DNA of 64,000 nucleotides from contig DASTLB010000022.1 in assembly GCA_035715365.1 (NCBI GenBank), positions 336,242-400,241 on the forward strand, written 5' to 3'. Positions 5,121 to 32,827 of this stretch are shown here, piece after piece; position 1 is the first letter of the stretch, and every line of letters starts with the position of its first letter. The notes beneath the pieces were generated by a model, which saw nothing but the letters and a program-made list of their open reading frames with translations, had not been told where the DNA came from and ran no database searches. A program made the position numbers and the translations under genes. The DNA comes from Kofleriaceae bacterium (GTDB taxonomy: Bacteria > Myxococcota_A > Polyangia > Haliangiales > Haliangiaceae).

Positions 5121-5485
5121 TCGGCCGAGATATTGCCCGCGAGCTGCCAGATCGGCCGGTAGCCGAAGTACACGGTGAACACGAGCGCCGCGACGATCGC
5201 GCCAATCGCCGCGAGGTAAATCCACAGCGGACCCGGTCGCTTCACGACGAGCCACGCGACCACGGCCGCACCGACGGTCGGCACGCCGATCAGCCACGGC
5301 GGGCGGATCGCGAAGATCGTCGCGTGCGAGATCTGCGCGTGCGGGCCCATCTCGCGATACATCGCCTCGAAGCCCGAGAACCACCACGACACGAGGCCGT
5401 GCACGGCGACGAGCAGCGCGAGCGCGCCGGTGAGCATGCCGCGGCCGAAGCCGGAGGTGTCGTCGGGTGGTGGCGGCGCCGTCAT
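5117..5485 (-). CDS. Small integral membrane protein (122 aa, about 3 TM helices), last gene of the minus-strand glycan operon
   Basis: C-terminal portion of six-frame ORF 5117-6256: MTAPPPPDDTSGFGRGMLTGALALLVAVHGLVSWWF...AAIGAIVAALVFTVYFGY. Start ATG at 5485-5483 overlaps the upstream stop (ATGA). Confidence 0.5.
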   Translation of the reverse strand: MTAPPPPDDTSGFGRGMLTGALALLVAVHGLVSWWFSGFEAMYREMGPHAQISHATIFAIRPPWLIGVPTVGAAVVAWLVVKRPGPLWIYLAAIGAIVAALVFTVYFGYRPIWQLAGNISAD

Positions 5486-6324
5486 CGCGGCGGCAGGTAC
5501 TCGGCGTAGAACGGCGACAGCGTCGACGCGATGCGCTCGTTCAGGTAGGCGATCTCGTCGGGCGACAGGTACTCGCGGAAGCCGCCGACCTTGCCCTTGC
5601 GCGTCTTGAACGACTCGGTGTCCGCGGCGTCTCCTGGCTTGAGGCGCGCGGCGGCGTCCTTCGCGGCCTGGGCCTCGAGCTTGCGCATGTTGTCGAATCG
5701 CGAGAACTCGACCGCGGCCTCGACGACCGCGCGCGGCGGGACGGTGCCAACGACGCGCAGGCAGCGCTCGACCTCGGTGACCGGATCCTTGTGGAGGTCC
5801 TCGTAGCGGACGAGCGTGAACGACCGCGGGATCGTGCGCGCCTCGGCCCACACGTTGTAGTAGGCGATGATCGTGTCGAGCGAGCCGACGTCGTGGCGCA
5901 GGAACTCGCCGGGCGTGCCGTGGAAGCGATCGCGACGGCGCGACGCCTGGAAGTAGTAGGAGATCATCGTGTCGCGCGGATCGCGGACGAGGAAGATGAT
6001 GTCCTTGCCGGCGTAGTGCGTCTTGTCGCGCTCGACCTCGTCGGGGCGCTTGAGCTGCGGATTGTCGTCGTGGGTGACGCGCATCCGCGGCAGCTGCTTC
6101 GCGTGCTGGTAGAAGCGCGCGAGGTCCATCGGGTCGATGTCGAGGTGGAGCTCGTCGGCGAGCGCCTTGCCCATCATCAGGCGCAGCCAGGTGCGGCCGG
6201 TCTTCGGGAACGAGAGTAGATACAGCGACGTGCGCTGGTGCGTGTACCAGCTCCACGCGCGCTTGCCGACGTCGGTCTCGCGGACGTACTTGCGCAGGTT
6301 CGACGGCAGTGCGGTGAGGTTCAT
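5482..6324 (-). CDS. Sulfotransferase (PAPS-dependent; P-loop SFPKTGRTWL, 3'-PB motif VRDPRDTMISYYF)
   Basis: Six-frame ORF 5482-6915 has an R-rich spurious N-terminus. The true start MNLTALP... (ATG 6324-6322) overlaps the TGA of the upstream dehydrogenase (ATGA). It shows sulfotransferase 5'-PSB and 3'-PB signatures. Confidence 0.8.
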   Translation of the reverse strand: MNLTALPSNLRKYVRETDVGKRAWSWYTHQRTSLYLLSFPKTGRTWLRLMMGKALADELHLDIDPMDLARFYQHAKQLPRMRVTHDDNPQLKRPDEVERDKTHYAGKDIIFLVRDPRDTMISYYFQASRRRDRFHGTPGEFLRHDVGSLDTIIAYYNVWAEARTIPRSFTLVRYEDLHKDPVTEVERCLRVVGTVPPRAVVEAAVEFSRFDNMRKLEAQAAKDAAARLKPGDAADTESFKTRKGKVGGFREYLSPDEIAYLNERIASTLSPFYAEYLPPR

Positions 6325-7313
6325 GCGTTCACTCGATTCCATGCCGGCTCGCCGCGCAGGATGCGGAGCGCTTCCTCGGCGGCCTTCTTGCGCATCTCGG
6401 CCATCGCCTCGAGCGAGTAGAACGCGGCGTGCGGCGTGATCACGAGCCGGTCCTGCGCCTCGGGGTGGTTCGCGAGCCACTTCGCGAGCAGCGGGTCGTC
6501 TGGATCGAGCGGCTCGGACGGCAGCACGTCGAAGCCGCCGGATGCGACGACGCCGGCGTCGAACGCCTCGCGGAATGCCGGCCAGTCGACGACCGGGCCG
6601 CGCGCGGTGTTGATCAGGACCATGCCGCGCTTCGCGGCCGCGAAGAACCGCTTGCCGATCAGGCCGCGCGTCTCGGACGTGAGCGGCGTGTGCAGGCTGA
6701 CGACGTCGCAGCTCGCCGCGAGCTCGTCGAGCGAGTGGTAGCGCGCGAGGCCGAGCGCCTTGTCCCAGCCCGCCGGGCGGTACGGATCGTAGAACCCGAC
6801 CTGCATGCCGAACGCCTTCGCGCGCAGCGCGGTCGCTGCGCCGATCCGCCCGAGCCCGACGATGCCGAGCTTCTTCTCGGTCAGCCGGAACGTGTGCGTC
6901 ACGCCCCACCGCCACTGCGCGGGGCCCGAGCGCACGGCGCGATCGTGACCCGACAGGCCGCGCGCGAGCGCGAGCAGCAGCGCCATGGCGTGATCGGCGA
7001 CGTCGTGCGTCCCGTAGTCGGGGACGTTCGCGACGACGATGTCACGCTTGCGGGCGGCCTCGAGATCGACGTTGTCGAACCCGACGCCGACCCGCACGAT
7101 CGCCTTGCACTTCGGCATCGCGGCGATCGTCGCGGCGTCCCACTTGAGGTCGTGCCACGCGAGGATCGCGTCCGCGTCCTCGATCTTCCCGGCGAGCTCG
7201 GCGTTCGTCTTCGCCTGCAGCAGCGTGACGCGCGCGAGCGTGCCGAACACGGCTTCTTCGATGTCGGCGGGCGGTGCGAGCCGGTCGGGAACGATGACGT
7301 GCCATTCAGCCAT
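6321..7313 (-). CDS. D-isomer-specific 2-hydroxyacid dehydrogenase family (glycerate/phosphoglycerate/4-phosphoerythronate dehydrogenase-like)
   Basis: NAD-binding GIVGLGRIGAATALRAKAFGMQV, catalytic region LINTARGPVVD, and HAAF near the C-terminus. ATG at 7313 lies in an 8-nt overlap with the FAH gene stop. Confidence 0.85.
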   Translation of the reverse strand: MAEWHVIVPDRLAPPADIEEAVFGTLARVTLLQAKTNAELAGKIEDADAILAWHDLKWDAATIAAMPKCKAIVRVGVGFDNVDLEAARKRDIVVANVPDYGTHDVADHAMALLLALARGLSGHDRAVRSGPAQWRWGVTHTFRLTEKKLGIVGLGRIGAATALRAKAFGMQVGFYDPYRPAGWDKALGLARYHSLDELAASCDVVSLHTPLTSETRGLIGKRFFAAAKRGMVLINTARGPVVDWPAFREAFDAGVVASGGFDVLPSEPLDPDDPLLAKWLANHPEAQDRLVITPHAAFYSLEAMAEMRKKAAEEALRILRGEPAWNRVNA

Positions 7314-8163
7314 CGCGAGACTCCTCTGCCACGTGATTGACGAGCGTGCCGATGCCCTCGATGACCATCTCGATTCGATCGCCGGGCTTCACGATCGACT
7401 GCCGCGCGCCGACCGGGGTGCCGGTCAGGATCGCGTCGCCGGGCTCGAGCGTCATGATCCGCGACGCGAGCGCGACCGCCTCGTAGGTGTCGAGCACGCG
7501 GTCGCCGGTCATCGCGTCCTGCGTCGTGCGATCGTTGATCTTCGTCGACACGCGCACGTTCGTGTCGTCGAGGCCGGTCACGAGCTCGGGGCCGAGCGGG
7601 CAGAAGCCGTCGAGGCTCTTGCTGCGCGCGAGGTGCCAGTCGCGGCCGAGGATGTTGAGCGCGGTGACGTCGTTACCGATCGTGATCCCGGCGACCACGT
7701 CGCGCGCGGCCGCGGCATCGCGCAGGTGGCGCGCACGCCGGCCGATGATCGCGGTGACCTCGACCTCGATCCACACCTCGGAAGCGGGCGGGACGTGGAT
7801 CGTGCCGCCGGGATGCGTGACGCAGTTCGGGCCCTTCAGGAACACGAGCGGCTCGAACCCGACGTCTGTGTAGTGCGCCTCGCTCTTCTTCGCGAGCGCC
7901 GCGGGGTCACCGAACAGCGACTTGTAGTTGTACGCGAGCGCGAGGATCTTCGTCGGCTCCGCCGGCGCGAGCAGCTCGACGTCCGCGAACCGGACGGTCT
8001 CGCCGGTGCGTTGCGTGCTCACCCACGGCGCCGCCGCGATCACGTGGATCGTGTCGGCCTCGCGAATGCCCCACGCCGGGCCGGCCGGAGGCGAAAGCGT
8101 CCGGCCACCCGGCACATCCGGACGATGACCGCGCGCGCCGCGAAATCGGACGTAGCGCGTCAC
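7306..8163 (-). CDS. Fumarylacetoacetate hydrolase (FAH) family protein (2-keto-acid hydratase/decarboxylase-type)
   Basis: FAH-fold motifs KILALAYNYKS, GFEPLVFLKGPN and TGTPVGA...PGDRIEMVIEGIG. GTG start at 8163 overlaps the upstream TGA (GTGA). Confidence 0.8.
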   Translation of the reverse strand: MTRYVRFRGARGHRPDVPGGRTLSPPAGPAWGIREADTIHVIAAAPWVSTQRTGETVRFADVELLAPAEPTKILALAYNYKSLFGDPAALAKKSEAHYTDVGFEPLVFLKGPNCVTHPGGTIHVPPASEVWIEVEVTAIIGRRARHLRDAAAARDVVAGITIGNDVTALNILGRDWHLARSKSLDGFCPLGPELVTGLDDTNVRVSTKINDRTTQDAMTGDRVLDTYEAVALASRIMTLEPGDAILTGTPVGARQSIVKPGDRIEMVIEGIGTLVNHVAEESRDG

Positions 8164-8897
8164 TGCTTGTCGTACGGCGTCGACGACTCGGTGAAGCCGG
8201 CGTTACGCAGGAAGTACTCGACCATCGGGAACTGCCACTCGAAGTCGACGTCGCAGCCGCCTTCCTGGTGCAGCGGGTGCACGGTCTTGCCGATCCAGCG
8301 GAACGGGATCTCGCCGCGCGAGTAGTCGAAGCAGTGCGGGCGCAGCACGAACACCGAGCAGTCGACGAAGTACGTGTCGCCCTGGCTGTCGCGATCGCAG
8401 GTCGCGCCCGCGAACGTCTCGGGATCGATGAACGGCTTGACGAGCCCGCCCTCGATCCGGCGAGCGCGCAGCGCGCTGAACATGTTGTACTTGCTGACCG
8501 AGACGGCGGAGTCGTACTCCGGGTGCTCGCGCAGCCACTTGACGCCCTCGTCGATGATGCCGGGCGTGATCGTCGCGCCGTTCGCGAATAACAGCACGAC
8601 GAACTCGATGGGTTCTTTCGCCTGGGCCACGATCTGCTCGTAGCCGTGCTTGAACGCGTCCTCGGCGAGCGCCTCGTTCGTCGCGAGGAACGCCGGGCGC
8701 TCGATGTACGTGCAACCCTGTTGCAACGCGATCTCGCGGATCGCCTCGCTGTCCGTCGAGACGAACACGTGGCTCACGGCCTTCGCATGCTTCGCCGCGA
8801 GGATCGGATACAGCGCGAGCGGACGTCCGAGGATCGGACGCACGTTCTTGTCCTTCACGCGGCTGCCTTTACGACCGATGATCAAAGTCGGGATCAC
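8160..8897 (-). CDS. Acylneuraminate/3-deoxy-manno-octulosonate-type cytidylyltransferase (CTP_transf_3, NeuA/KdsB family): CMP-sugar-acid synthetase
   Basis: Real start is GTG at 8897 (VIPTLIIGRKGSRVKDKNVRPILGRPLALYPI = the IPARxxSxRxPxKNxxxLxGKPLI signature) with an AGGAG RBS 7 nt upstream. The longer track ORF 8160-9137 has a spurious R-rich N-terminus. The GTG overlaps the HAD gene stop (GTGA). Confidence 0.75.
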   Translation of the reverse strand: MIPTLIIGRKGSRVKDKNVRPILGRPLALYPILAAKHAKAVSHVFVSTDSEAIREIALQQGCTYIERPAFLATNEALAEDAFKHGYEQIVAQAKEPIEFVVLLFANGATITPGIIDEGVKWLREHPEYDSAVSVSKYNMFSALRARRIEGGLVKPFIDPETFAGATCDRDSQGDTYFVDCSVFVLRPHCFDYSRGEIPFRWIGKTVHPLHQEGGCDVDFEWQFPMVEYFLRNAGFTESSTPYDKQ

Positions 8898-9652
8898 GAT
8901 GCAATCTCCTCTGCGTGGCGTGCGAGCGCCCGCTCCAGATCGGTGAGCTGAAGGCACGGTAACCCGCCCGCCTTCGCGTTGTGAACGTCGTCGGCGCCGA
9001 GATAGCCCCACAGCGCCAGGTGCGCGGAAATCCCGCGCTTCAGCGCCGGGAGTGCGTGGTGCGCGTAGTCGTCGAGGAAGAACACCGCGCTCGCCGGCAG
9101 CCCTCGCGCCTCGGCGGCCTCGACGAGGATCTGCCACTTCTCCTTCGTCCCCGAGCGCGGCAGCAGCGTCGGCGTGATGCCCGCGAAGTGGCCGAGGATC
9201 CGCTGGATCGAGCGATCGTCGCGCGTCGACAGGATCACGGCGTCACCGCCGAGCTTGCGAAACGCCTGCACGGCGTCGGCGAACGGCTCGATGACGGAAC
9301 ACCAGGTCGCGACGTCCTCGGACAGCTCGCCGCGTGTCGCGAAGTAGAGGTCGGTGAACGAGGCGAGCTCGGCCTTGCGCGCGTTCGCGATCGCGAGGAA
9401 CTGCTCGGTCGTCGACGGTAACTGCTCCGTCGCCAGCAGGTCGAGCAGCACCGCGTACTGCCACGGCGGACCGACCCAGTGGCGGTGCGCGAGGAACGCG
9501 GTCGCGAGCTCCGGCGTCGGCGACGCGACATCACGCCAGCGCTCGGCCGCGGGACCCGGGCGCTTCCTCGACGCCGCGTACGCGACCGCGAGGCACTCGC
9601 GCGCGGTGTCGAACAGCACGCCGTCGAAGTCGAACACGTAGAGCGGCTTCAC
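8894..9652 (-). CDS. HAD-superfamily phosphatase (DxDGV motif; KdsC / sugar-acid-phosphate phosphatase-like)
   Basis: N-terminal FDFDGVLFDT (HAD motif I), later ILSTRD and FFLDDYAHH (motifs II-IV). GTG start. Confidence 0.75.
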   Translation of the reverse strand: MKPLYVFDFDGVLFDTARECLAVAYAASRKRPGPAAERWRDVASPTPELATAFLAHRHWVGPPWQYAVLLDLLATEQLPSTTEQFLAIANARKAELASFTDLYFATRGELSEDVATWCSVIEPFADAVQAFRKLGGDAVILSTRDDRSIQRILGHFAGITPTLLPRSGTKEKWQILVEAAEARGLPASAVFFLDDYAHHALPALKRGISAHLALWGYLGADDVHNAKAGGLPCLQLTDLERALARHAEEIAS

Positions 9653-9659
9653 CGGACCC

Positions 9660-10697
9660 TCAGCGGAACAGGTCGACCGCGTCGGCGACGCGCGACGAGT
9701 AACCCCACTCGTTGTCGTACCAGAGCACGACCTTGAGCTGGCGGCCGCGGTTCAGCATCAGCCACCGCGTGTCGATGATGCAGCTGTGCTCGTCCTTCAG
9801 GTAGTCGACCGAGATCAGCGGCTCGTCGGTGATCCGCACGACGTGGCGGCCCTGCTGCGAGGCCTCGAGCGCGTGTAGCGCCTCGAGCACGGTCTGCTCG
9901 GTCGCGTCGCGCTCGAGGTGCAGCGTCATGTCGCCGCTCGACACGCATGGCGTCGGCACGCGATAGGACATGCACTTGAGGCGCCCGGCGAGCGCCGGCA
10001 GGATGCGCTCGCACGCGCTGACGACCGTCGTCGGCTTCGGGATCAGCGCGCCGACCGACGACCGGCCGAGCGGATAGTGCGAGTACGTCGCGCCCGGGTA
10101 CGCCTGCGAGCGCGCCGGACCGTCCATCAGGTTCTGGTACGACAGCCACGGGTGCAGCGTCGTGATGAAGCCGAACTCGACGCCGAACCGCTCGTCGAGC
10201 GTCTTCAGCACGGGCGCGGCGGCGATCGCGTCGCAGATGCTCGTCGACACGACGCGATGCTTCTTCGCGTCGAAACCCTGCTCGGTCGCACCGAACACGA
10301 GCGTGTAGTCCGCGCTCGGCGCGGCGTGCGTGATCAGGACCGGCGCGATCGAATCCGCGACCTTGCGCGCGTGCTTCTCGTTCAACGACGTGCCGGTCGC
10401 CTCGATCACGACGTCGACCTCGCCGTGCTGCCAGTCGACCGCGGCGATGTCGTTGACGTGCGTGACGCGGATCGACGCGTCGCCGACGTGCAGGCCCTCG
10501 TACGTCGCATCGACCTTCTGCGCGAGCCGGCCGTACGTGGTGTCGTACTTCAGCAGGTACGCGAGGTTCTCCTTGTCGACGTTCAGATCGTTGATGTGGA
10601 CGATCCGGTGCTTGCCGCTCTCGAGGAGGATCCGCGTGACCGCGCGGCCGATGCGGCCAAAGCCGTTGATCCCGATTCGCAAGGCGCGTGTGCTCAT
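9660..10697 (-). CDS. Glyceraldehyde-3-phosphate / erythrose-4-phosphate dehydrogenase family protein (divergent catalytic region)
   Basis: N-terminal RIGINGFGRIGR (GAPDH NAD-binding signature). The catalytic-Cys region reads STSICDAIAAAP rather than canonical ASCTTNCLAP. ATG at 10697 with a GGAGG RBS overlaps the upstream stop (ATGA). The track ORF 9660-11930 is a read-through artefact. Confidence 0.8.
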   Translation of the reverse strand: MSTRALRIGINGFGRIGRAVTRILLESGKHRIVHINDLNVDKENLAYLLKYDTTYGRLAQKVDATYEGLHVGDASIRVTHVNDIAAVDWQHGEVDVVIEATGTSLNEKHARKVADSIAPVLITHAAPSADYTLVFGATEQGFDAKKHRVVSTSICDAIAAAPVLKTLDERFGVEFGFITTLHPWLSYQNLMDGPARSQAYPGATYSHYPLGRSSVGALIPKPTTVVSACERILPALAGRLKCMSYRVPTPCVSSGDMTLHLERDATEQTVLEALHALEASQQGRHVVRITDEPLISVDYLKDEHSCIIDTRWLMLNRGRQLKVVLWYDNEWGYSSRVADAVDLFR

Positions 10698-11857
10698 GAT
10701 GACCTCCGGCTGCGTAGCTCGAGCAGCGTGCTGGCAATCCGATCCGCCGCCTGACCGCGATGGGCCAGGTGGCGCTCCAGAAACGAGTCGGCGCGCGGGC
10801 GCTCTCCCGCGACGAGCGCGGGCAATTCGCGCGCGAGGTTGTCGAGCGTCAGCCCGACGGCGGCGCCGCGCTCGACGTACTCGAAGATGTGGCCGTACTT
10901 CGGCAGCGCGAGTACCCCGAGCGGCAGCCCGAACGCGAGCGCCTCGAGGCCGACGGTCGACGCGAGCACGACCGCGGCCTGCCCCATCGCGAGCACCTCG
11001 AACAGCGGCTCGCTGCCGTCGAGCACCGTGACGTTTGCCTGCGGCGTGTGCTTCGCGGTGTTGCGAAACCCGGCGACGCTCTCGCGCGGGTGCAACTTGG
11101 CGACGATCGGCCGGCCTGCGAGCACCGGCGCCGCGCGCTCGAGGAACGCGTGGAACAGGTCGTACTTCTCGGCGGTCGTGCAGAAGCCCTGATCGTCGAT
11201 CGTGTTCGACAGGAACAGCAGCGGTCGCTCGGACAGGCCGAGCTTTGCTTGCAGCGCTTCGCCGCGCGCGCGCCACTGGGCGGGATCGACGTCGTCCCAG
11301 CGCGGCGTCCCGGTGATCACGACGTTCGCGCCGACCTTGCGAAAGTGCTCGGCGCTCGCCTCGCCCCACACGCACACCGCCGACGCGCCGCCGCCGCCGT
11401 ACGGCGCGCCCGCCGCCTGCTCGGTCGGCAGCGGAAACCGGATCCCCTCCTGGAGCAGCGCGAACGGCACCTCGGCGCGGCGCAGCTGCTCGGCGAGCTG
11501 GCCGTACGGGAACGCGGCATCGTTCGGCAGCACGACGACGTCGCTGCCGCGCAACAGCCAGCGCAAGCGCGGCGCGAGCACCGTGTGCCACGCGAGCTTC
11601 TGCGCCGTCGACCGCGCCGCGGCGCCGCCCGCGCCCTCGAGCCCGGCACCGACCGACGGATCCTTGCGGATCCAGCGCGGCAGCGCCTGCTTCACCGTCG
11701 TGTGCGGCACGAGCTTCGGCAGATCCGGCGTCTGGAAGCCGCGCAGCTCCGCCAGGGACACGAACCGCGTCGGCTCGCCCTGCGCCGCGAGCTTCTTCGC
11801 GACGGGCACCATCATGTCGACGTGGTGCCGCGGGTTCGTGAACACGAACGTCACCAT
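10694..11857 (-). CDS. Capsule-polysaccharide-biosynthesis-like transferase (KpsS/KpsC- or TagF-like, about 387 aa)
   Basis: Size and architecture resemble Capsule_synth/Glyphos_transf proteins: N-terminal Rossmann-like block, central LLFLSNTIDDQGF, C-terminal HPRES. Recognition is by general family resemblance only. The 7-nt ATGGTGA overlap links it to the upstream GT4. Confidence 0.45.
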   Translation of the reverse strand: MVTFVFTNPRHHVDMMVPVAKKLAAQGEPTRFVSLAELRGFQTPDLPKLVPHTTVKQALPRWIRKDPSVGAGLEGAGGAAARSTAQKLAWHTVLAPRLRWLLRGSDVVVLPNDAAFPYGQLAEQLRRAEVPFALLQEGIRFPLPTEQAAGAPYGGGGASAVCVWGEASAEHFRKVGANVVITGTPRWDDVDPAQWRARGEALQAKLGLSERPLLFLSNTIDDQGFCTTAEKYDLFHAFLERAAPVLAGRPIVAKLHPRESVAGFRNTAKHTPQANVTVLDGSEPLFEVLAMGQAAVVLASTVGLEALAFGLPLGVLALPKYGHIFEYVERGAAVGLTLDNLARELPALVAGERPRADSFLERHLAHRGQAADRIASTLLELRSRRSS

Positions 11858-12969
11858 GCCGCCGCTGCCTCGCCGAGCATCGCGCCCTGGTACTTCGCCA
11901 TCGCGGCGACAGTCGTGAACCGCTCGGCACCGCGGCGGGCGGCCTCGCTCATCCGGGCGTGGAGCTGCGCGTCGTCGAGCAAGCGCGCCGCGCGGTCAGC
12001 GAGCACGTGCGGATCGCCGACCGGCACGAGGAAGCCGGATACACCGTTCTCGATCACCTCGCGCGGCCCGAAGTCGGCATCGGTCGACACGACCGGCACG
12101 CCGCACGACATCGCCTGGATGATCCCGCCCGGCAGGCCCTCGGCGCGGCTCGCGTGGATCAGCAACTTCGAGCGCGCGAGGTACTTGAACGGGTTCGGAT
12201 CGAAGCCGTGGAACACGACGTCGTCGGCGAGGCCGAGCTGCTGCGCCTGCGCTTCGAGCTCGCGGTGCAGCGGGCCCTCGCCGAGCACGAACAGCCGGAC
12301 GCGCCGGCTCGCGCGCACGATCGCGAACGCGCGCAACATCGTGGGATAGTCCTTGATCGCGACGAGGCGGCCGATCGCGAGCAGCACCGGCACGTCGCCT
12401 CCGAACCACGGGTGGTCGACCGGCTCGGCGGCCTGGCGGCGCGTCTCGTCGTCGACGAGTGGGTTGTAGACGACGTGGACCTTCGTCTTCGCGAGGCCGA
12501 GCGCGCTGACGAGATCGTCGGCGACGCCGCGCGATACCGCGGTGACGACATCGGCGAGCCGGTAGGTCGCCATCTTCGCCGGCAACTCGATCGCCATGCG
12601 CGTCGGGCTACGATCGACGCGGCGGAGCGCGCTGCGCTCGGACACGACGAGCCGCGCCTTCGAGCGCGCGAGCACGTGCGCCATCGCCGCGACGATGTTC
12701 GCGCCGCCCTGCATCGCGAACACGACGTCGGGCCGTTCCTGGCGCAGCACGCGCGCGAGCGCCGGTACCGAGACCGCGAGCCGGCGCGTGCCGAGCTCGA
12801 TCGTCCGGACGTCCGGCGGGATCTCGCCGACGAACGAGCCCTCGCGGCGCAGCAGCGCGATCGACGGCTCGAACTTCGTGCGATCGAGGTGGCGCAGCAG
12901 CGTGATCGTCACGCGATCCGCGCCGCCCGACGCCAGCGTCGGCGTGAAGAACAGGACGCGTGTCGTCAC
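11851..12969 (-). CDS. Glycosyltransferase family 4 (GT-B, retaining)
   Basis: C-terminal EX7E-type motif [24 protein letters not shown]-terminal [21 protein letters not shown] start at 12969 overlaps the APS kinase stop (GTGA); the track start at 13014 would overlap cysC by 48 nt. Confidence 0.85.
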
Positions 12970-13496
12970 GCCAGCTCCAGCCGCTCCAGCGTGGCGATGA
13001 TCTCGCGCTCGCACTCGGCGAGTGGCTTCAGATCGGTGCGGACCTCGAGCGTCGGCGCCGGCGGCGGCTCGTACGGATCCGAGATCCCGGTGAAGCTCGC
13101 GATCTCGCCGGCCTGGGCCTTCTTGTAGAGGCCCTTCACGTCGCGCGCGATCACGGTCTCGAGCGGCGCGTTCACGAACACCTCGACGAACGGGTGCCCG
13201 GCGGCCTCGCTCGCGGCCTTGAGCTCGGCGCGCGTGTCGGCGTACGGCGAGATCGCCGCGACGAACACGAGCACGCCGTGTTTCGCGAGCAGCCGGCCGA
13301 CGTACGCGATCCGGCGGACGTTGGTGTCGCGATCGGCGCGCGAGAATCCGAGGCCCGCGGTCAGGAACATGCGGACCTCGTCGCCGTCGAGCAGCTCGAT
13401 CGGGCGCCGCGTCGCGAGGCGCTGCGAGACCGCGGTCGCGAGCGTCGACTTGCCCGCGCCCGACAGGCCGGTGAGCCAGACGATCCCGCCGCGCAT
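12966..13496 (-). CDS. cysC: Adenylyl-sulfate kinase (APS kinase; makes PAPS)
   Basis: Walker [20 protein letters not shown], and [16 protein letters not shown], a textbook CysC. ATG at 13496 (the track's 13499 is a GTG) overlaps the upstream TGA by 1 nt. Confidence 0.9.
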
Positions 13497-14704
13497 CACG
13501 CCGCTGCCTTCGGTGCGATCACCGGACGCACCACGGGCTTGCGCGCCGCAGCGGCGAGCTTGTCTTCTTCACGCAACGAGACGACGACGCCGAGCAAGAC
13601 CCACATGAGTGCAAACCGTAATCCTTGATGGGTCATGCCGTAGGCGAAGGCCGGGCCGACGACCATCCACGTCTGGAGAGGCGTTCGTTTCATGACGAAC
13701 CACATGAAGATGCCGAACAGCACCGTGCCGACGATGCCGTAGCAGAAGAACATCGTGCCGAGCGACGAGTGCAGCTCGTGCGAGCCGATCACCGTCGTGT
13801 CCTTGAACCGGCGATACGCGCCCTCGCCCGAGCCGAGCACCCAGTACTCGGGGTTGTTGACGATGCGGTCGTAGCCGCGCTCCTCGAAGAAGTCGTGCGA
13901 CTCGTCGCGATCGATGCGCTCCTGTGCGCGCTCGAGCGCGGCGGAGAACGGGTTCGGCGTCACGAGCAGGACGACGAACACGAGCGCCGCGACGATCATC
14001 GTGCGCAGCCGTCCGATCAGGATCGCGATCGCGAGCATCGCGATGCTGGCGAGCGCGGCCTTCGACGCCGACAGCAGCGCGAGGTAGCTCGCCATCGTCA
14101 CGCCCGCGAGCACCGCGACCGTCGACATCTTCGTGCGGCGCTGGCCGAGCAGCAGGATGCACGCGCACAGCAAACCGTAGTAGCCGAGCTGGTTCGGCTC
14201 GTTGAACGCGTTCGTCGAGCGCATGCGGCTCGAGCCACCGAGGCTGACGAGGATCTGCAGCCCGAGCGACACGAGGATCACGCGCGTCGTCAGCCACAGG
14301 AACTTCAGGCCGTATCGCCGGTGCAGCAGCAGGATCGTGAAGAACAGCAGCAGGTTGAAGATGTAGAACAGCGGGCTGAGGATGAAGCTGTCCTTGAGAT
14401 CGACCGAGATCTTGCCGACCCACACCGTCCACAGCAGGTTCGCGATCACCGCGTAGAGCACGAACCGCGCGAGCGCCATCAGCGTCCGGCGCGTGTCGGT
14501 CATCAGCTTGCCGTCCCACGACGCGAAGATCGACGGCATCAGCACGACGAGCAGCCACACCGCGGGCTGCGGCAGCCCGTTCGGCACGACGTAGAACGGG
14601 AAGAAGATGATGAAGAGGCTCCACGCGAGCAGCCGCGGATCGCGACAGATCGCGATCGCCTCGGCCATCGTGTGACCGAGCGAGGGAGGAACCCGGAACT
14701 TCAT
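13496..14704 (-). CDS. Wzy-like polysaccharide polymerase / O-antigen-ligase-family membrane protein (first gene of the operon)
   Basis: About 10-12 predicted TM helices and a large periplasmic loop ...[20 protein letters not shown]... typical of Wzy_C proteins. Conspicuously AT-richer (TTT/TTC codons) than neighbours. Confidence 0.6.
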
Positions 14705-14801: not shown

Positions 14802-14847
14802 AGGCCCGAAAATGACGACGGGCCCGAGGCCTTGGCAGCCGCGGGCC
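14802..14847 (-). terminator. Candidate terminator hairpins after the repeat-lipoprotein gene (GGCCCG-n10-CGGGCC and GGGCCCG-n15-CGGGCCC)
   Basis: Two overlapping GC-rich inverted repeats 20-60 nt downstream of the stop at 14867 (minus strand). The minus-strand reading has a TTTT within or after the stem. Confidence 0.35.
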
Positions 14848-14866
14848 CGTCGAGCGCAGGCCGTGC

Positions 14867-17800
14867 CTACTGGCAGACGTGCGGTGCGCCGGTCACGTCG
14901 TCCGGCGGGCACACGCCGGTGCCACCGACCGACGTCGTGCACGCGATGCCCTGGCGGCGACCGATGTCGTCGGGGCACGTGATGTTGACGCCGTCGCACT
15001 TCTCCTGGCGGTCGCAGAACGTGTCCGCGTACGGCCGGCAGACCTTGCCGAGCAGCGTCGGTGCGCACACGCCGTCCGGCTGCCCGGTCAGCGTGCTCTT
15101 GCAGCTCTGGCAGTCGATCGCGTTGCCGCCGCAGGCGCTCTCGCAGCAGCGGCTGTCGACGCAGAACCCGCCGGTACCGCACTGCGCGTCCGTGCTGCAC
15201 AGGCTGCCGGTCGTCGCCGAGACCGTGATCTGGCGCGACACGACGCGGACCGTCTGCAGATCCGGGCGCTCCTTGACGTACGCGATGCGCGAGACCTTCG
15301 CCGCCGACGAATCGCCGAGCGCCGGGGTCGTCTCGTTCTCGGGGCCAGCGGAGATCACGAACTCGGGCTCGCCGACCGCACCGGTGGTGCCGATGCCGAT
15401 GCCGAAGATGTCCGAGCCGGTCGTCGCCGCATTGCGGCCGTCCTGCCACGCGACGAGGAAGCTACCGACGTTCTGCGCGACGGTCGGCGACGACTGCGCA
15501 CCGGTGGTGCCGCCGATGCCGAAGCCGCTCGGGTCGAGCACGTTCAGCGACGCGCCGGCCTGGATCCGAGCACCGAAGATGTCGCCCTCACCGTCGCTGC
15601 GACGGTCCTGCCACACCGCGAGGAAGATGCCGCCGGTGAACGCGAGGCTCGGCGTGAACTGGCTGCCAGTCGCGCCACCGCTGACCAGGACGCCGTTCGC
15701 ATCGAGCACGGTGCCCGTCGCGTCGATGCGCGCGCCGAAGATGTCGAAGTCGGTGTTGACGCGACCGTCCGACCACACGACGACCCACTGCTGGTTGTTC
15801 GTGTCGAACGCGACCGCGGGGCGGTTCTGATCACCGGCGGCGTCGCAGATCACGATGTCGTTCTTGATGATGTTGCCGCTCGCGTCGAGCAGCGCGCCCA
15901 TAATGTCGAAGCTCGTGCCGCGACGGTCCTGCCAGACCACGAGCGCGGCACCGGCAGCGGTGCCACCCGGGTTCGACACCGCGACGGCCGGCGTCAGCTG
16001 ATCGCCCGCGGCCTGCGCGAGCGGCGTACCGGCCGCGCTCGTCACCGAGCCATCGGTGTTGATCTTCGTCATGAACAGATCGGCGTCGACGCCGCTGCGC
16101 GTGTCGGACCAGATCGCGAACATCTGCGTGCCGCCCGAGCTCGAGATCGCCGGCGCGAACTGCGCGTTCGCGGAGCCGTTGAGCGTCAGCGCGTTCGCGT
16201 CGAGCTTCGTCAGGCCGTTGAACCGCACGAACATCACGTCGGTCGAGTCGTTGCTGCGGCTATCGGTCCACGCGACGACGTGCGTGTTGCCGGCGTGGCC
16301 GACCGCGGGGTTGAACTCGCGGTTGTTGCCGGTGACGAGCCGCAGGTTCGCGCCGACCGCACCCGCCGCCGAGACGGCCGAGCCGAACACGGTCTGGATG
16401 CGCGCGTCGCGCGAGTCGTGCCACACGCTGAAGAAGTTCGAGCCGTCGGTCGCGACCGCCGGCGCCTGCTGCGCCTGGTTCGCCGTCGCGATCTGGAGCT
16501 CGCCGCCCGCGAGCGTGAAGTCCGGGTTCAGGCGCTGGCCGAAGATGTCGAAGCTCGCGGTCGCGAAGTTGCGACGCTCGCGCCACACGACGAGGCAGGT
16601 CGCCGCGGTGCACGCGATCTTCGGCTGCTCCTGGCTATCGGCCGCGGTCGTGACCGGCACGCCACCGACGGTGAGCGTGTTCTCGACGCGCGTGTCGAGC
16701 ACCGCGCCCGCGGTCGTGACGCGCGTGCCGAAGATGTTGAGGCCGCCGTTGTTGTTGCTCCACGCGACCATGAAGTTCGTGCCGTTGAACGCGACCGTCG
16801 GGTCGAACTGGCGGTTCGCCGCGGCCGAGATGTCGAACGCCGCGCCGACCGAGCCGCCGGTCGTCACGATCGAGCCGCGCAGGTTCGCATCGGTCTGCGC
16901 GCCTTCCGACCACGCGACGAGGAACCCGGTCCCGGGCGCGCCCGCGACCGCCGACTGGATCTCGACGTTCGCCGAGGCCGCGACGTTGAACGGTGCGCCG
17001 AACGTGGTGCCGTTGAAGATCGCGCCCTGGATGTTCGCGGCGCCAACCGTCCACGTCAGCAGGCCCGTGCCGCCGGCGCTACCGAGCGCGGGCTCGGTCT
17101 CGCTCGTCGTGGTGCCCGCGATCGTGCCGAGCTGGGTGACCGCACCCGCGGACGACACGCGCGCAGCGACGATGTCGGACTCGGTGCCGTCGGTGACCTT
17201 GAAGTCCTCCCACGCGACGACGTACGTGCCGCCGGCGAACGTGACGGTCGGGTGGGTCTGGATGCCGGGGCCCGAGCCGATTAGGATGCCATCGGCGTCG
17301 AGGATCGTGCCCGACGGTGAGATCCGCGTGCCGAAGATGTCGGCATCGGTCGAGAGCCGGCGATCCGACCACACGACGAGGTAGTTCGTGCCGTCGGACG
17401 CGATCGCGGCCTGATTCGCGCCGGTGCCGGTACCGCCGTTGACCGGCGCATCGACCGCGACCTCGGCGGTGACCGTCGGATCGAGGACGGCCGGGAACGT
17501 CGAGGACTTCACGATGTCCTCGGGAACCGTCATGACGATCTGGCCATCGACGTAGCGCGCGTCGATCGGCCACGTCGTGCCCTTCGCATCGACCCACGTC
17601 GCGTCGCTGTAGCGGAAGCCGAGCGCGGTCGGCGACTTGAAGTGGAGGCCGGTCGCGGTGTCCGCGACGAACGTCTGGCCGACCACCGAGACGGAGACGA
17701 CGAGATCGCCATCGGCGAGCGGCGCGCTATCGAAGCGCCACGCCTGCTCGATGCCGTCCTCGCGGTTCGTGATCGTCTCGATCGCCGCGCCGCGCGTGGT

Positions 17801-18178
17801 CTCGGTGATGCCGTTGACGAGCGTCGTCGCGACCGGGCCGTCGATCGACGTGTCACCCATGGTGATCGTGCCGGTGCGCAGCGCCATCGCGCCGCCGGTG
17901 ATCTTCGTCGTGCCGTCGTAGTGATACGGCGTGACCTCGACGAAGCCCTCGGACACCTTCACGTCGTGCGTCAGGTAGCCCGCGCGATACGTGCCGCTGT
18001 CGTTGCGGAACGCGGTGATCGCCTTCTGCGCGAGCAGCTGGAGATCCCGCTCGGGGCCCGCCACCAGCGTACCGGTCTCCGTCGGCGCCGGCTCCGTCGG
18101 CTGGGTTGGCTTATCGGAGCCCTGGCAAGCCGCAAGTCCGGCTACCAGCGCCAACTGGAAGAAGCGTGTGCTGTTCAT
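14867..18178 (-). CDS. Large secreted lipoprotein with about 14 tandem 50-aa repeats ([FYL]xVxWxDxRxxxxDIFGxR...) and a C-terminal Cys-rich domain of Myxococcus type
   Basis: Lipoprotein signal MNSTRFFQLALVAGLAAC|QG (start ATG 18178; the track start 18208 is upstream). The repeats are visible by eye. The C-terminal CSTDAQCGTGGFCVDSRCCESACGG...C-x-C pattern resembles the myxobacterial Cys-rich repeat. Confidence 0.7.
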   Translation of the reverse strand: MNSTRFFQLALVAGLAACQGSDKPTQPTEPAPTETGTLVAGPERDLQLLAQKAITAFRNDSGTYRAGYLTHDVKVSEGFVEVTPYHYDGTTKITGGAMALRTGTITMGDTSIDGPVATTLVNGITETTRGAAIETITNREDGIEQAWRFDSAPLADGDLVVSVSVVGQTFVADTATGLHFKSPTALGFRYSDATWVDAKGTTWPIDARYVDGQIVMTVPEDIVKSSTFPAVLDPTVTAEVAVDAPVNGGTGTGANQAAIASDGTNYLVVWSDRRLSTDADIFGTRISPSGTILDADGILIGSGPGIQTHPTVTFAGGTYVVAWEDFKVTDGTESDIVAARVSSAGAVTQLGTIAGTTTSETEPALGSAGGTGLLTWTVGAANIQGAIFNGTTFGAPFNVAASANVEIQSAVAGAPGTGFLVAWSEGAQTDANLRGSIVTTGGSVGAAFDISAAANRQFDPTVAFNGTNFMVAWSNNNGGLNIFGTRVTTAGAVLDTRVENTLTVGGVPVTTAADSQEQPKIACTAATCLVVWRERRNFATASFDIFGQRLNPDFTLAGGELQIATANQAQQAPAVATDGSNFFSVWHDSRDARIQTVFGSAVSAAGAVGANLRLVTGNNREFNPAVGHAGNTHVVAWTDSRSNDSTDVMFVRFNGLTKLDANALTLNGSANAQFAPAISSSGGTQMFAIWSDTRSGVDADLFMTKINTDGSVTSAAGTPLAQAAGDQLTPAVAVSNPGGTAAGAALVVWQDRRGTSFDIMGALLDASGNIIKNDIVICDAAGDQNRPAVAFDTNNQQWVVVWSDGRVNTDFDIFGARIDATGTVLDANGVLVSGGATGSQFTPSLAFTGGIFLAVWQDRRSDGEGDIFGARIQAGASLNVLDPSGFGIGGTTGAQSSPTVAQNVGSFLVAWQDGRNAATTGSDIFGIGIGTTGAVGEPEFVISAGPENETTPALGDSSAAKVSRIAYVKERPDLQTVRVVSRQITVSATTGSLCSTDAQCGTGGFCVDSRCCESACGGNAIDCQSCKSTLTGQPDGVCAPTLLGKVCRPYADTFCDRQEKCDGVNITCPDDIGRRQGIACTTSVGGTGVCPPDDVTGAPHVCQ

Positions 18179-18271
18179 GGATGCTCCCATGCAAGATCGA
18201 ATGCTCATGATACTCGCTTCCCGGTCGTCTGGAGTCGACCATACCCCGTTGTTATCCGACTGCTTTGTGGT

Positions 18272-19390
18272 CTAGGTCTCTCGTGTAATGGCCGAGAGCA
18301 CCCGGTCCTGATCAGCAATTCCGAGCGACGAGCCACTCGGCAGACACACGCCATGGCGAAACAGTGATTCGGCCACCTCGCCGCGAACGGTGGGTGCGCC
18401 GGCAAAGGCTGGCTGTAGGTGCAGCGGCTTCCACACCGGCCGCGCCTCGATGTCGGCGGCGGCGAGCCGCGTCAGGAGCGCGTCGCGATCCTCGCCGTGG
18501 GCCGGATCGATCGTCGCGCAGGTCAGCCAGAACGTCGCGCGGCCGAACTTCGCCTCGGGCATGAACGACCACCCGGGCCGGCCGGCGAGCGCCTCGCGGT
18601 AGCGGCGGTTGATCGCGCGGCGCGCCTCGACGCGGCGGTCGAGGTCGGCGAGCTGCGCGCGCCCGACCGCAGCGAGCAGGTTCGAGAGCCGGTAGTTGTA
18701 GCCGACGACCTTGTGCTCGTAGTGCGCGACCGGCTCGCGCGCCTGGGTCGCGAGGTGACGCGCGCGATCGATCAACGCCTGATCGCGGCCGAGCAGCATG
18801 CCGCCGCCCGACGTCGTGATGATCTTGTTGCCGTTGAACGACAGGATCGAGAGCTCGCCGAACGATCCGGCGGGACGGCCGCCATAGGTTGCCCCGAGCG
18901 CCTCGGCCGCATCCTCGACGAGGATCACGCCATGCCGGCGGCACGCGGTGACGATCGGCTCGTAGTCAGCGCACTGGCCGTAGAGATCGACCGCGATCAG
19001 CGCCTTCGGCAGGCTGTTCGTGCGCGCCGCGCGGTCGAGCTCCTCGACGACGAGGCCGGGATCGAGGTTCCAGCTCGCGGTGTCGCTGTCGACGAACACC
19101 GGCGTCGCGCCGACGTACGCGATCGCGTTCGCGGTCGCCGCGAACGTCAGCGTCGAGCACCACACGCGATCGCCGGCCCCGATGCCGAGCGCGAGCAGCG
19201 CGAGGTGGAGCGCGGCGGTGCCACTCGCGGTCGCGAGCGCGTGCGGCATGTCGAGCCGCGACGTGATCTCGCGCTCGAACGCGTCGACCTCGGGACCGAG
19301 CGGCGCGATCCAGCCCGATGCGAGCGCCTCGGTCAGGCGCTGGAGCTCGGCGCCCGATAGCTCGGGAGGAGACAGGTAGATCCGAGCCAT
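18272..19390 (-). CDS. DegT/DnrJ/EryC1/StrS-family PLP-dependent sugar aminotransferase (PglE/WecE-like)
   Basis: Motifs LSFNGNKIITTSGGGMLL (PLP-Lys region), VGYNYRLSNLLAAVGRAQL and GVCLPSGSSL. Confidence 0.9.
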   Translation of the reverse strand: MARIYLSPPELSGAELQRLTEALASGWIAPLGPEVDAFEREITSRLDMPHALATASGTAALHLALLALGIGAGDRVWCSTLTFAATANAIAYVGATPVFVDSDTASWNLDPGLVVEELDRAARTNSLPKALIAVDLYGQCADYEPIVTACRRHGVILVEDAAEALGATYGGRPAGSFGELSILSFNGNKIITTSGGGMLLGRDQALIDRARHLATQAREPVAHYEHKVVGYNYRLSNLLAAVGRAQLADLDRRVEARRAINRRYREALAGRPGWSFMPEAKFGRATFWLTCATIDPAHGEDRDALLTRLAAADIEARPVWKPLHLQPAFAGAPTVRGEVAESLFRHGVCLPSGSSLGIADQDRVLSAITRET

Positions 19391-19399
19391 CGTCCTCGC

Positions 19400-21313
19400 T
19401 CAGGCTCCGACGACCAGTTGCGATCCGGTGGTGGCCTCGACCCGGCGGGGCTTCGTCTCGCGCGGCAGCTCGGGCGCGCCCGTGTACTCGGGCACGAGCG
19501 CGTGCAGCGCGTGGCGGATCCGATCACCGTCGAGCTCGACCGACGCGATCAGCTCGTCGACGCTGCGCGAGGCCTCGGCCCAGCCGACCGGCGCGATCCG
19601 GCCGATGAAGATCTTCGGGTGCTTCGTCTTGGACGCGTGCTCGGTATCGGTCGACAGCTCCTCGAACAGCTTCTCGCCCGGGCGGATGCCGGCGAACTCG
19701 ATCGCGATGTCCTCGTCGGGGCGCAGGCCGGAGAGCCGGATCAGGTCGCGCGCGAGGTCGACGATCTTCACGGGCTCGCCCATGTCGAGGATGAAGATCT
19801 CGCTGCCCTCGCCCATCGCGCCGGCCTGGAGCACGAGCTGGCTCGCCTCCGGGATCGTCATGAAGTAGCGCTTCATCTCGGGGTGCGTGACCGTGACCGG
19901 GCCGCCGCGCGCGATCTGCTCCTTGAAGATCGGGATCACCGAGCCGTTGCTGCCGAGCACGTTGCCGAACCGCACGGTCACGAACCGCGTCTTGCTGCGC
20001 TGGCCGAGCGCCTGCGTGTAGATCTCGGCGACGCGCTTCGTCGCGCCCATCACCGACGTCGGGTTGACCGCCTTGTCCGTCGACACGAGCACGAAGCGAT
20101 CGACCTCGTACTTGTCGGCGAGCGTCGCGAGCACGCGCGTGCCGCCGACGTTGTTCTTCACGGCCTCGCCCGGGTTCGCCTCCATCATCGGCACGTGCTT
20201 GTGCGCGGCGGCGTGGAACACGACGTTCGGGCGGTGCTCGGCGAACACCTGATCCATCCGCTTGGCATCGGTGACGTCGGCGATGCACGGCTCGATCGCG
20301 AGCGTCGGGTGCTCCTTGCGCAGCTCGCGATGGATCTCGAACAGCGCGTTCTCGAACCGCTCGACGAGCACGAGCCGCTTCGGCGCGAACCGGCAGACCT
20401 GGCGGCAGAGCTCGCTGCCGATGCTGCCACCGGCCCCGGTGACGACGACGATCTCGTTGCGGATCGAGTGATTGATCGAGACCTCGTCGAGCTGGACCGG
20501 CTCGCGGCCGAGGAGGTCCTCGATCGCGACCTCGCGGATCCGCGACAGGTTCACGCGATCGTCGACGATCTCGTAGATGCCCGGGATGATCTTGGTGTCG
20601 AGGTTCGCTTCCTTGCACGCCATCGCGATCCGGCGGATCTCCGAGCCACCGGCGTTCGCGATCGTGATGAGGACGCGGGCGATCCGCTTGCGCTGCGCGA
20701 CCTCGACGAGCTGTGCCGTCGTGCCGAGCACCGGCAGGCCGCCGATGTTCGCGCCGACCTTCAGCTTGTCGTCGTCGAGAAAGCCGACCGCCTGCAGCCC
20801 GAGGTCCGGGCGGCGAGCGATCTCGCGCGCGACCATGACGCCGGCCTCGCCGGCACCGATCAGCAGCACGCGCTTCTTGTGACGATCCTTGCCGCGGCGC
20901 TTCTTGTCGCGCGCCTCGACGTAGCCGCGCCGGGTCGCGCGCACACCGACGAGCGCGCCGATCGCGAGCACGAGGTTCGCGCATAGCACGCCGAGCGGGA
21001 GGAACAGGAACTCGAGCGCGATCCCGTCGAGCAGGCGCGGGATCAGCAGCAAGCTCGACGCGACCGTCATCGCGAGCACGACCGTCGCGGCTTCCTTGAA
21101 GCTGATGTAGCGCCACGCGTACTTCGGGACGCCGAAGACGACGAGCGCGCCGTACTCGAGACCGAGCACGAACGGCCAGCTGATCGACGCGATCTGGAGC
21201 CAGTAGCTCGGGATCGAGAACTCGAAGCGGATCAGGAAGGCCAGCCAGAACGCCGCCGACAGCACCCCGAGATCGACCGCGATCTGCAGACCTCTAGTAA
21301 GAAAGCGGGGCAT
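19400..21313 (-). CDS. Membrane-anchored UDP-sugar 4,6-dehydratase (CapD/PglF/WbpM family)
   Basis: Four N-terminal TM helices, then two Rossmann/SDR-like domains with VLLIGAGEAG and VTGAGGSIGSEL plus the catalytic region VSTDKAVNPTSVMGATKR. Confidence 0.9.
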   Translation of the reverse strand: MPRFLTRGLQIAVDLGVLSAAFWLAFLIRFEFSIPSYWLQIASISWPFVLGLEYGALVVFGVPKYAWRYISFKEAATVVLAMTVASSLLLIPRLLDGIALEFLFLPLGVLCANLVLAIGALVGVRATRRGYVEARDKKRRGKDRHKKRVLLIGAGEAGVMVAREIARRPDLGLQAVGFLDDDKLKVGANIGGLPVLGTTAQLVEVAQRKRIARVLITIANAGGSEIRRIAMACKEANLDTKIIPGIYEIVDDRVNLSRIREVAIEDLLGREPVQLDEVSINHSIRNEIVVVTGAGGSIGSELCRQVCRFAPKRLVLVERFENALFEIHRELRKEHPTLAIEPCIADVTDAKRMDQVFAEHRPNVVFHAAAHKHVPMMEANPGEAVKNNVGGTRVLATLADKYEVDRFVLVSTDKAVNPTSVMGATKRVAEIYTQALGQRSKTRFVTVRFGNVLGSNGSVIPIFKEQIARGGPVTVTHPEMKRYFMTIPEASQLVLQAGAMGEGSEIFILDMGEPVKIVDLARDLIRLSGLRPDEDIAIEFAGIRPGEKLFEELSTDTEHASKTKHPKIFIGRIAPVGWAEASRSVDELIASVELDGDRIRHALHALVPEYTGAPELPRETKPRRVEATTGSQLVVGA

Positions 21314-21526
21314 TGCGCGTGGGGGATTAGTGGATGGTCAGCCAAGGACCGTTCACGGCGAAACGTCGCGCACCCTAACATGGGCGTCCTGATTTGCGCC
21401 TGTGAATCCGAGCACTTCCACCGCGCTGGCCGTGAGGGCACGGTAAGCCGGGCAAACTGCGCGAACGAACGAGAAATCCGGACGGACCGGTCACGATCTG
21501 ATGAATGTTCATTCGCGGAACGGAAA

Positions 21527-21556
21527 CAGCCCGGGGGAGGCCATCCCGCCGGGCTG
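21527..21556 (-). terminator. Candidate intrinsic terminator after the TSP3/LamG lipoprotein gene (8-bp stem CAGCCCGG/CCGGGCTG, extendable to about 11 bp, followed by UUUCCGUU)
   Basis: Inverted repeat seen 22 nt downstream of the stop at 21578 on the minus strand. The U-tract is imperfect. Confidence 0.4.
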
Positions 21557-21577
21557 CATCGATCGATCGGAGCTTGG

Positions 21578-32816: not shown

Positions 32817-32827
32817 CGGGTCTCCTC

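Follow-up and report, generated by a model that had tools for sequence, protein, structure and literature searches.

The PropLec7C lectin class, to which CV39L and BP39L belong, is listed as binding L-fucose and mannose (PMC11186620). The propeller enzyme CylK has long blades, Ca2+ sites at the blade junctions and an active site with the N-terminal RTX domain on one side and the propeller's top face on the other (PMC8916777). The propeller of the Vibrio cholerae proteins Bap1 and RbmC, described as 'double-sided tape' adhesins, binds the cell's own exopolysaccharide (PMC10102183). Here we compare with these systems the product of a gene from a Kofleriaceae bacterium, located on the minus strand of a 64,000-nt stretch of contig DASTLB010000022.1 (positions 336,242 to 400,241; this whole stretch is called the window). 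The gene is a single open reading frame (ORF) at window positions 14867..18208, with 1113 codons plus a stop codon at 14867-14869; residue numbers below count from the ORF start at 18208. Sequence features point to an extracellular tandem propeller made from an undescribed blade family, and we are highly confident of the architecture (lipid anchor, tether, N-terminal sandwich, two propellers and a 16-Cys knob) as well as of the fold and family assignment. An earlier reading made from the letters alone (the sequence-only reading) was mostly right; its exceptions were the abundance of the repeat, the type of the C-terminal tail and an overlooked N-terminal sandwich.

The central part of the protein contains 13 clear repeats of ∼52 residues and a degenerate fourteenth at residues 961-1000, where Tyr stands in place of Trp; the earlier count of about 14 copies thus holds. 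The invariant Trp is found at residues 280, 333, 386, 433, 483, 542, 596, 647, 700, 759, 812, 866 and 921 (spacing of 47-59 residues), and the 13 units align as Q-x-x-P-a-V-A-x-x-G-x-x-x-L-V-V-W-x-D-x-R-x(4-7)-D-I-F-G-x-R-x-x-x-x-G-x-v-L-D. AlphaFold2, run with a 67-sequence alignment, produced an all-beta model (mean predicted local distance difference test score, pLDDT, of 86.1; predicted template-modelling score of 0.72) in which the four strands of each repeat make one blade. The best Foldseek matches in the PDB were tandem seven-bladed propellers (Elp2, GH74, Utp21 and EML1), and seven-bladed propellers could be superposed on each half of the model. Judged by these superpositions and the strand count, the blades would split 7+7. 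Predicted propeller 1 takes up blades 1-7 (residues 263-629; 16322..17422, minus strand), of which blades 2-5 are without the W-x-D-x-R motif. In predicted propeller 2 (residues 630-1000; 15209..16321, minus strand) blades 8-13 retain both W-x-D-x-R and DIFG-x-R, and blade 14 is the degenerate one. Two seven-bladed propellers had been proposed in the sequence-only reading, with structure prediction named as the check; the model and the superpositions agree with that proposal.

Searches of Pfam, NCBIfam and PDB sequences with the whole protein yielded nothing meaningful. None of the named Pfam propellers (WD40, Kelch, PQQ, YVTN/lactonase, NHL, FG-GAP, PD40, SBBP and BNR) was detected in it at E≤1, so the earlier statement that the repeats match no named propeller family stands, no established Pfam family having turned up. 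Weak Pfam matches to DUF3659, DUF5620 and GH43 were rejected as compositional, since they fell on the G-x-V-L-D-x-x-G loop or had no stretch passing alone. A profile of the 13 repeats, on the other hand, run against 1.84 billion representative proteins (50%-identity clusters), matched 24,362 of them at E≤1e-3 and 3,508 at E≤1e-30. The canonical form of the repeat in the best matches reads QxxPAVAFDGTNYLVVWxDxRxxxxDIYGARVSxxGxVLDPxGIxIS. The window repeats aligned to canonical blades with 99.6% probability in hhalign, and a blade hidden Markov model (A3), built solely from five other proteins of unrelated lineages, found 12 blades in the window protein at 359.6 bits, the best of 200 shuffled sequences reaching 4.5 bits. 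At the level of sequence, then, the window repeat represents a diverged version of an extracellular repeat that is very abundant; it is unnamed rather than rare, because 24,362 clusters match it and yet no Pfam model exists.

The only curated model in NCBIfam or Pfam with a hold on this family is NCBIfam TIGR04275 (beta_prop_Msarc, a 40-aa repeat). It matched six of six canonical relatives with E-values from 7e-5 to 7.6e-38 (22-128 bits), with P0127 alone among them passing its 85-bit cutoff, and did not match the window protein at E≤1. Propeller families of Pfam were absent from the same six relatives at E≤0.01, and none of the six yielded a Pfam model for the cassette as a whole. When the blade profiles were compared with PDB sequences, the sole match was the lectin CV39L (6gxs; E-values of 2e-7 and 1.7e-6). 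All seven CV39L blades, with a period of ∼52 residues, carry [IV]G-x-DG-x-aYLV-x-WQD, which aligns to VAFDGtnYLVVWqD; BP39L gave no sequence match to the blade profiles. The designation 'novel' given to the repeat by the sequence-only reading was thus overstated, in view of its abundance, the partial recognition of its canonical form by TIGR04275 and the blade motif held in common with CV39L. 'Bagel' designer propellers were also considered and rejected, as they match over 12 residues only (SPAIGQDGTIYV) and show merely a propeller-like A-strand motif. The available portion of the propeller survey of Pereira & Lupas (PMC9218822) contains no mention of the repeat.

Exactly 13 detectable repeats, spanning ∼680 residues, were present in 130 of the 150 best repeat-profile matches. 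The C termini of the relatives carry type IX secretion system (T9SS) type A sorting domains, MYXO-CTERM-like signals (GCGC, helix, RRRR), or PKD, Big_9, cadherin-like or ephrin-receptor-like Cys modules, an indication that these proteins are located outside the cell. The propellers nearly always come as a fixed 13+1-blade cassette, with the anchor (T9SS C-terminal domain, MYXO-CTERM or lipobox) being the lineage's own. In public records the relatives are named for their accessory parts alone, as 'T9SS type A sorting domain-containing' or 'PKD domain-containing', or else are called 'hypothetical', as is the cassette relative WP_236605710.1 of Sandaracinus amylolyticus. One relative, P0143 (2303 aa), contains two full sets of sandwich, 14 blades, disintegrin-like tail and MYXO-CTERM, with a lipobox-like sequence, MRAVVLAAVVAAGCG, between the sets; it probably represents two tandem paralogous genes fused by gene calling.

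A scan of one genome per species confirmed at least 576 matching stretches, and 80 loci kept from these give the following distribution. They come from Myxococcota (including the cultured Hyalangium versicolor and Anaeromyxobacter soli), Actinomycetota (Gaiellales, Thermoleophilia and Acidimicrobiia), Gemmatimonadota, Nitrospiraceae, Spirochaetales, Parcubacteria, the candidate phyla WOR-3, Eisenbacteria, Edwardsbacteria, Stahlbacteria, Zixibacteria and TA06, and one Thermoplasmata archaeon. Several single genomes have three to five separate cassette loci, an indication of paralogue expansion; examples are a Gaiellales metagenome-assembled genome (MAG), WOR-3 bins, and Edwardsbacteria and Stahlbacteria MAGs (loci L005-L083).

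In canonical members the blades resemble each other more within a protein (mean scores of 98-171) than between proteins (91-142), and blade i of one protein is no closer to blade i of another than to any of its other blades, the best match carrying the same index about once in 13 cases. When distant members of the family were examined for blade-by-blade orthology, none was found. Every blade of a canonical member keeps the same residues, though 39% of the codons for identical residues differ synonymously; this suggests that selection acts alike on all blades, as it would on repeated equivalent sites. The within-protein likeness may have arisen by repeated amplification to exactly 14 blades or by gene conversion. 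The window protein shows the reverse pattern, with 58 within the protein versus 66-84 to other proteins, which indicates that its blades have become differentiated, and its orthologues are colinear. A blade count fixed at 14 without position-specific conservation of blades makes this family a useful case for studies of propeller evolution.

Upstream of the propellers lies a 217-aa domain (residues 46-262; 17423..18073, minus strand) that was overlooked in the sequence-only reading. In the model it superposes on members of the galactose-mutarotase-like supersandwich fold, and its fold matches are nearly exclusively carbohydrate-active enzymes, in which it is the accessory sandwich of GH38, GH65, GH15 and GH31 as well as of PL35 and heparinase-like enzymes. 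The same sandwich directly precedes the repeats in 57 of the 150 best matches. Word-indexed homologue searches with this domain and with the blade profile returned fragments only and no useful names.

The orthologues, which are colinear with the window protein, are ∼1100 aa long and 38-64% identical to it; the 67 full-length ones were aligned (alignment A1). No second copy of the gene was found in a six-frame scan of the window. The internal Met11 codon, at 18178, is probably the true start, which would give a protein of 1103 aa; this start is favored because a GGGAG stands 6 nt upstream of the ATG and the signal peptide counted from Met11 has a normal length of 17 residues. The upper coordinate of 18178 used in the sequence-only reading is therefore the probable start of translation, with the ORF itself extending to 18208. 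From Met11 the N terminus reads MNSTRFFQLALVAGLAAC28-Q and fits the bacterial lipobox [LVI][ASTVI][GAS]C, so that lipidation is predicted; the signal peptide (residues 11-27) and the lipobox Cys28 (LAAC|Q) occupy 18125..18178 on the minus strand. Conservation among the 67 orthologues reaches at least 90% for both Cys28 and Gln29, and the lipobox pattern is seen in 95 of 117 orthologues; the earlier assignment as a lipoprotein fits both counts. The database entry for the identical protein from a Kofleriaceae MAG (P0001, 1065 aa) has its annotated start 48 residues inside the ORF (window 18065-18208), and this annotation drops the signal peptide and the lipobox, both conserved in orthologues.

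The lipobox is followed by a predicted Pro/Thr/Glu-rich tether (residues 29-45; 18074..18124, minus strand; pLDDT <50), and Pro-rich acidic linkers are also seen in orthologues. The product would be held in the envelope by a lipid anchor and is probably exposed at the cell surface, by analogy with its relatives: as these are T9SS substrates or bear a MYXO-CTERM sorting signal, the cassette probably does its work beyond the outer membrane.

The C-terminal tail (residues 1001-1113; 14870..15208, minus strand) has 16 Cys within residues 1004-1112, all invariant in the 67 orthologues; the sequence-only reading had counted 14 in the last ∼130 residues. That reading had also called the tail a Myxococcus-type Cys-rich domain, but neither the Myxococcus Cys-rich repeat TIGR02232 nor PF13948 (DUF4215) matched the window protein at E≤1, while both models do work on the relative P0127. 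The tail is instead disintegrin-like. It contains CRPYADTFCDRQEKCDGVNITCPDD, with the ADAM-type pattern CR..CD..E.C.G....CP.D (CRx6CDxxExCxGx4CPxD), and searched alone it matched Pfam PF00200 with 19.4 bits and E of 0.0019, over model positions 6-75 of 75 and below the cutoff of 35.1. In 10 of 10 tails (from nine orthologues and one distant relative) PF00200 was the only or the best match, end to end and sub-threshold at 16-28 bits. The same Cys-rich tail was present in 10 of the 150 best repeat-profile matches.

The genomic surroundings offer a clue to function. Directly upstream on the same strand are genes for a DegT/PglE-like aminotransferase (18272-19390; DegT_DnrJ_EryC1, E 4e-96) and a PglF-like 4,6-dehydratase (19400-21313; Polysacc_synt_2, E 6e-122), Pfam matches confirming the pair that had been read from the sequence. 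Downstream polysaccharide genes (5482..14704, minus strand) keep the same order in the orthologue locus L001. The first of them (13496-14704, minus strand) codes for a polytopic membrane protein of 402 aa with at least eight hydrophobic segments and no Pfam match, which may be a Wzy-type polymerase; L001 has a 408-aa counterpart at the same position. Next comes a family 4 glycosyltransferase (GT4; 11851-13014, minus strand), followed in order on the minus strand by an unknown gene and by genes for a GAPDH-like protein, HAD, cytidylyltransferase, FAA-hydrolase, 2-hydroxyacid dehydrogenase and sulfotransferase. In the ORFs of the sulfotransferase (5482-6915, minus strand) and the GAPDH-like protein (9660-11930, minus strand) the domains begin only at residues 231 and 418, so the listed starts are too far upstream.

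Beyond the window, all six orthologue loci examined (41-57% identity) are, like the window gene, situated in exopolysaccharide or capsular polysaccharide clusters. These clusters variously contain DegT, PglF-like, PglD-like acetyltransferase, GT4, sulfotransferase, methyltransferase, Wzx, Wzy_C, Wzz/tyrosine kinase (BY-kinase), Wza and Pel9A-like beta-helix genes, and the gene order varies. Since the association has outlasted rearrangement, a functional link to the polymer made by the cluster is well supported. The Kofleriaceae gene is kept in a Wzx/Wzy-type cluster for an amino-sugar polysaccharide that is probably sulfated, and with its neighbourhood conserved around one polysaccharide pathway this branch is the clearest functional handle on the family.

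We propose, as a plausible reading that we hold at somewhat less than an even chance, that the predicted function is that of a surface glycan-binding scaffold for the polysaccharide of the cluster. The proposal draws on the export of the relatives, on a sandwich typical of carbohydrate-active enzymes, on a lectin being the sole solved relative by sequence, on the equivalence of the blades, on the placement of the gene in polysaccharide clusters and on the precedent of Bap1/RbmC. The propellers and the sandwich would together make a multivalent, non-catalytic glycan-binding scaffold that holds or organises the polysaccharide at the outer membrane. The disintegrin-like knob would face outward for a second contact, a mode of action akin to the 'double-sided tape' of Bap1/RbmC (PMC10102183).

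Several observations weigh against this proposal. The likeness to CV39L is a short motif of 12-18 residues covering strands A and B only, and phmmer with a single canonical relative (P0181) did not recover CV39L from the PDB. The best structural match is CylK (PDB 7ron), a Friedel-Crafts alkylating enzyme. With the canonical motif gone from blades 2-5, propeller 1 is no equivalent of propeller 2, and the conserved W, D and R residues could be purely structural; residues invariant specifically in the orthologues are E144, Q155, W157, H189, Y200, D554, R662, D868 and R881. The choice of the surface over the periplasm is made solely by analogy with T9SS- or MYXO-CTERM-anchored relatives. Finally, the window protein is strongly acidic (isoelectric point of 4.45; 4.3-4.8 in orthologues), which is awkward for binding of a sulfated or acidic polymer unless metal-bridged; a conserved basic surface for an anionic polymer was ruled out, the protein being acidic throughout.

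The alternative that survives best, rather unlikely in our estimate, is a surface-located adhesin or glycoprotein that binds an external ligand, for instance prey, a substrate or other cells, and whose gene sits in the cluster because the protein is a glycosylation substrate or is co-regulated, in the manner of S-layer genes beside glycan clusters. The PglF/PglE(/PglD)-type genes are compatible with such a role, as are the Wzy_C-family proteins, a family that includes O-oligosaccharyltransferases, and the Pro/Thr-rich low-complexity tether behind the lipobox. So are the disintegrin-like knob, the PKD, cadherin-like and Cys-rich domains of the relatives, which are typical of adhesins, and the many paralogues of several genomes. 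However, the clusters also have Wzz/BY-kinase and Wza genes for export of a high-molecular-weight polymer, unneeded for protein glycosylation, and an association that persists through rearrangements suggests a link to the polymer itself.

It is also possible, at a still lower probability, that the protein is a lyase, a hydrolase or another modifier that trims or remodels the polymer; its active site would then lie on one face of a propeller or where sandwich and propeller meet. Exopolysaccharide operons frequently encode a dedicated glycanase, and the enzymes listed above as bearing the N-terminal fold (GH38, GH65, GH15, GH31, PL35 and heparinase-like) would be natural company for such a protein. 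Yet the window protein has no CAZy-type Pfam match, the near-uniform blades of the canonical relatives are without a unique site, and the clusters already hold a candidate enzyme in the beta-helix or Pel9A-like proteins. A periplasm-facing outer-membrane lipoprotein acting as a structural part of the export machinery, for example by bridging Wza/OPX (outer-membrane polysaccharide export protein) to the outer membrane, is improbable: the lipobox with Gln at +2 and the conserved placement among Wzx/Wzy/Wza/Wzz genes would suit it, but relatives with the same cassette are T9SS-exported or MYXO-CTERM-tagged, which points beyond the outer membrane, the gene is not beside Wza in most loci, and no OPX partner is known to have such a fold.

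If the glycan-binding scaffold is taken as the function and extended to the whole family, the sandwich and 14-blade cassette would define a major unnamed superfamily of surface glycan-binding proteins, a new lectin/adhesin class found in more than a dozen bacterial phyla and at least one archaeal genome. Its blade number would be held at 14, its blades would be more alike within than between proteins, and the Kofleriaceae branch would serve specifically to anchor a sulfated exopolysaccharide. We offer this wider picture tentatively and consider it doubtful as a whole. Tens of thousands of predicted surface proteins carry the cassette, in the candidate phyla WOR-3, Eisenbacteria, Zixibacteria and KSB1 and in Actinomycetota and Myxococcota, and annotation would improve widely if the family were defined by its fold of two seven-bladed propellers, its usual partner domain and a function that can be tested.

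Some further features of the window were noted. Directly 3′ of the stop codon is a GC-rich, terminator-like hairpin (14816..14852, minus strand), followed by UCAUUUUC; its predicted RNA fold has −46.5 kcal/mol (z of −4.07), none of 200 shuffles was equally stable, and a simple consensus terminator scan did not call it. Antisense to the gene run long ORFs of 801 and 442 aa, including window 14879-17284 (plus strand), and a 622-aa Arg/Val-rich ORF at 21380-23248 (plus strand) resembles them; all three appear to be high-GC artefacts and not genes. Upstream of the PglF-like gene are a Ser/Thr kinase with tetratricopeptide repeats (TPRs; 23401-25746, minus strand) and a right-handed beta-helix protein (25781-27217, minus strand). 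L001 has a beta-helix gene at the corresponding position, and L085 and L086 contain Pel9A-like beta-helix genes. Three consecutive TPR proteins (427, 1225 and 836 aa) are encoded at 31689-39012 (minus strand); the AT skew at 30-40 kb, which coincides with these genes, is strongly negative (−0.19 to −0.36) and has no bearing on the propeller gene. In the 827-aa ORF at 45562-48045 (minus strand) GatB domains start only at residue 356, and its true start is probably well downstream.

Comparison with the known systems gives the following picture. TIGR04275, the only curated model that recognises the canonical repeat, covers ∼33 of the ∼52 residues of a blade. The match of the tail to disintegrins of the ADAM and snake-venom type (PF00200) runs end to end and includes the CR-x6-CD-xx-E-x-C-x-G-x4-CP-x-D pattern, but the tail differs in its sub-cutoff score, bacterial origin, 16 Cys, an extra C-terminal extension and the lack of an RGD-type loop. 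With BP39L and CV39L (PDB 6gxr and 6gxs) the window protein shares the seven-bladed propeller, blades of ∼52 aa and, for CV39L, the A/B-strand motif. These lectins are single 39-kDa propellers, without a lipid anchor, sandwich, second propeller or Cys-rich knob; the window protein, with 14 blades, three modules and an anchor, thus does not conform to the single soluble ∼39-kDa propeller of PropLec7C.

Like CylK, the window protein has seven-bladed propellers with unusually long blades and an N-terminal domain packed on the propeller (PMC8916777). The identity between the two is 12%, with no sequence-profile match, and in CylK the N-terminal domain is a Ca2+-binding RTX beta-roll (PMC8916777), whereas that of the window protein is a supersandwich with no RTX. 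CylK has one propeller against two here, its catalytic residues are Arg105, Tyr473 and Asp440, and its gene belongs to a natural-product cluster, not a polysaccharide cluster. Bap1 and RbmC are secreted and are not known to be lipid-anchored. We draw with them a functional analogy only and claim no homology: the likeness would consist in a propeller that binds the cell's own exopolysaccharide, predicted in our case, combined with a second module facing outward (PMC10102183).

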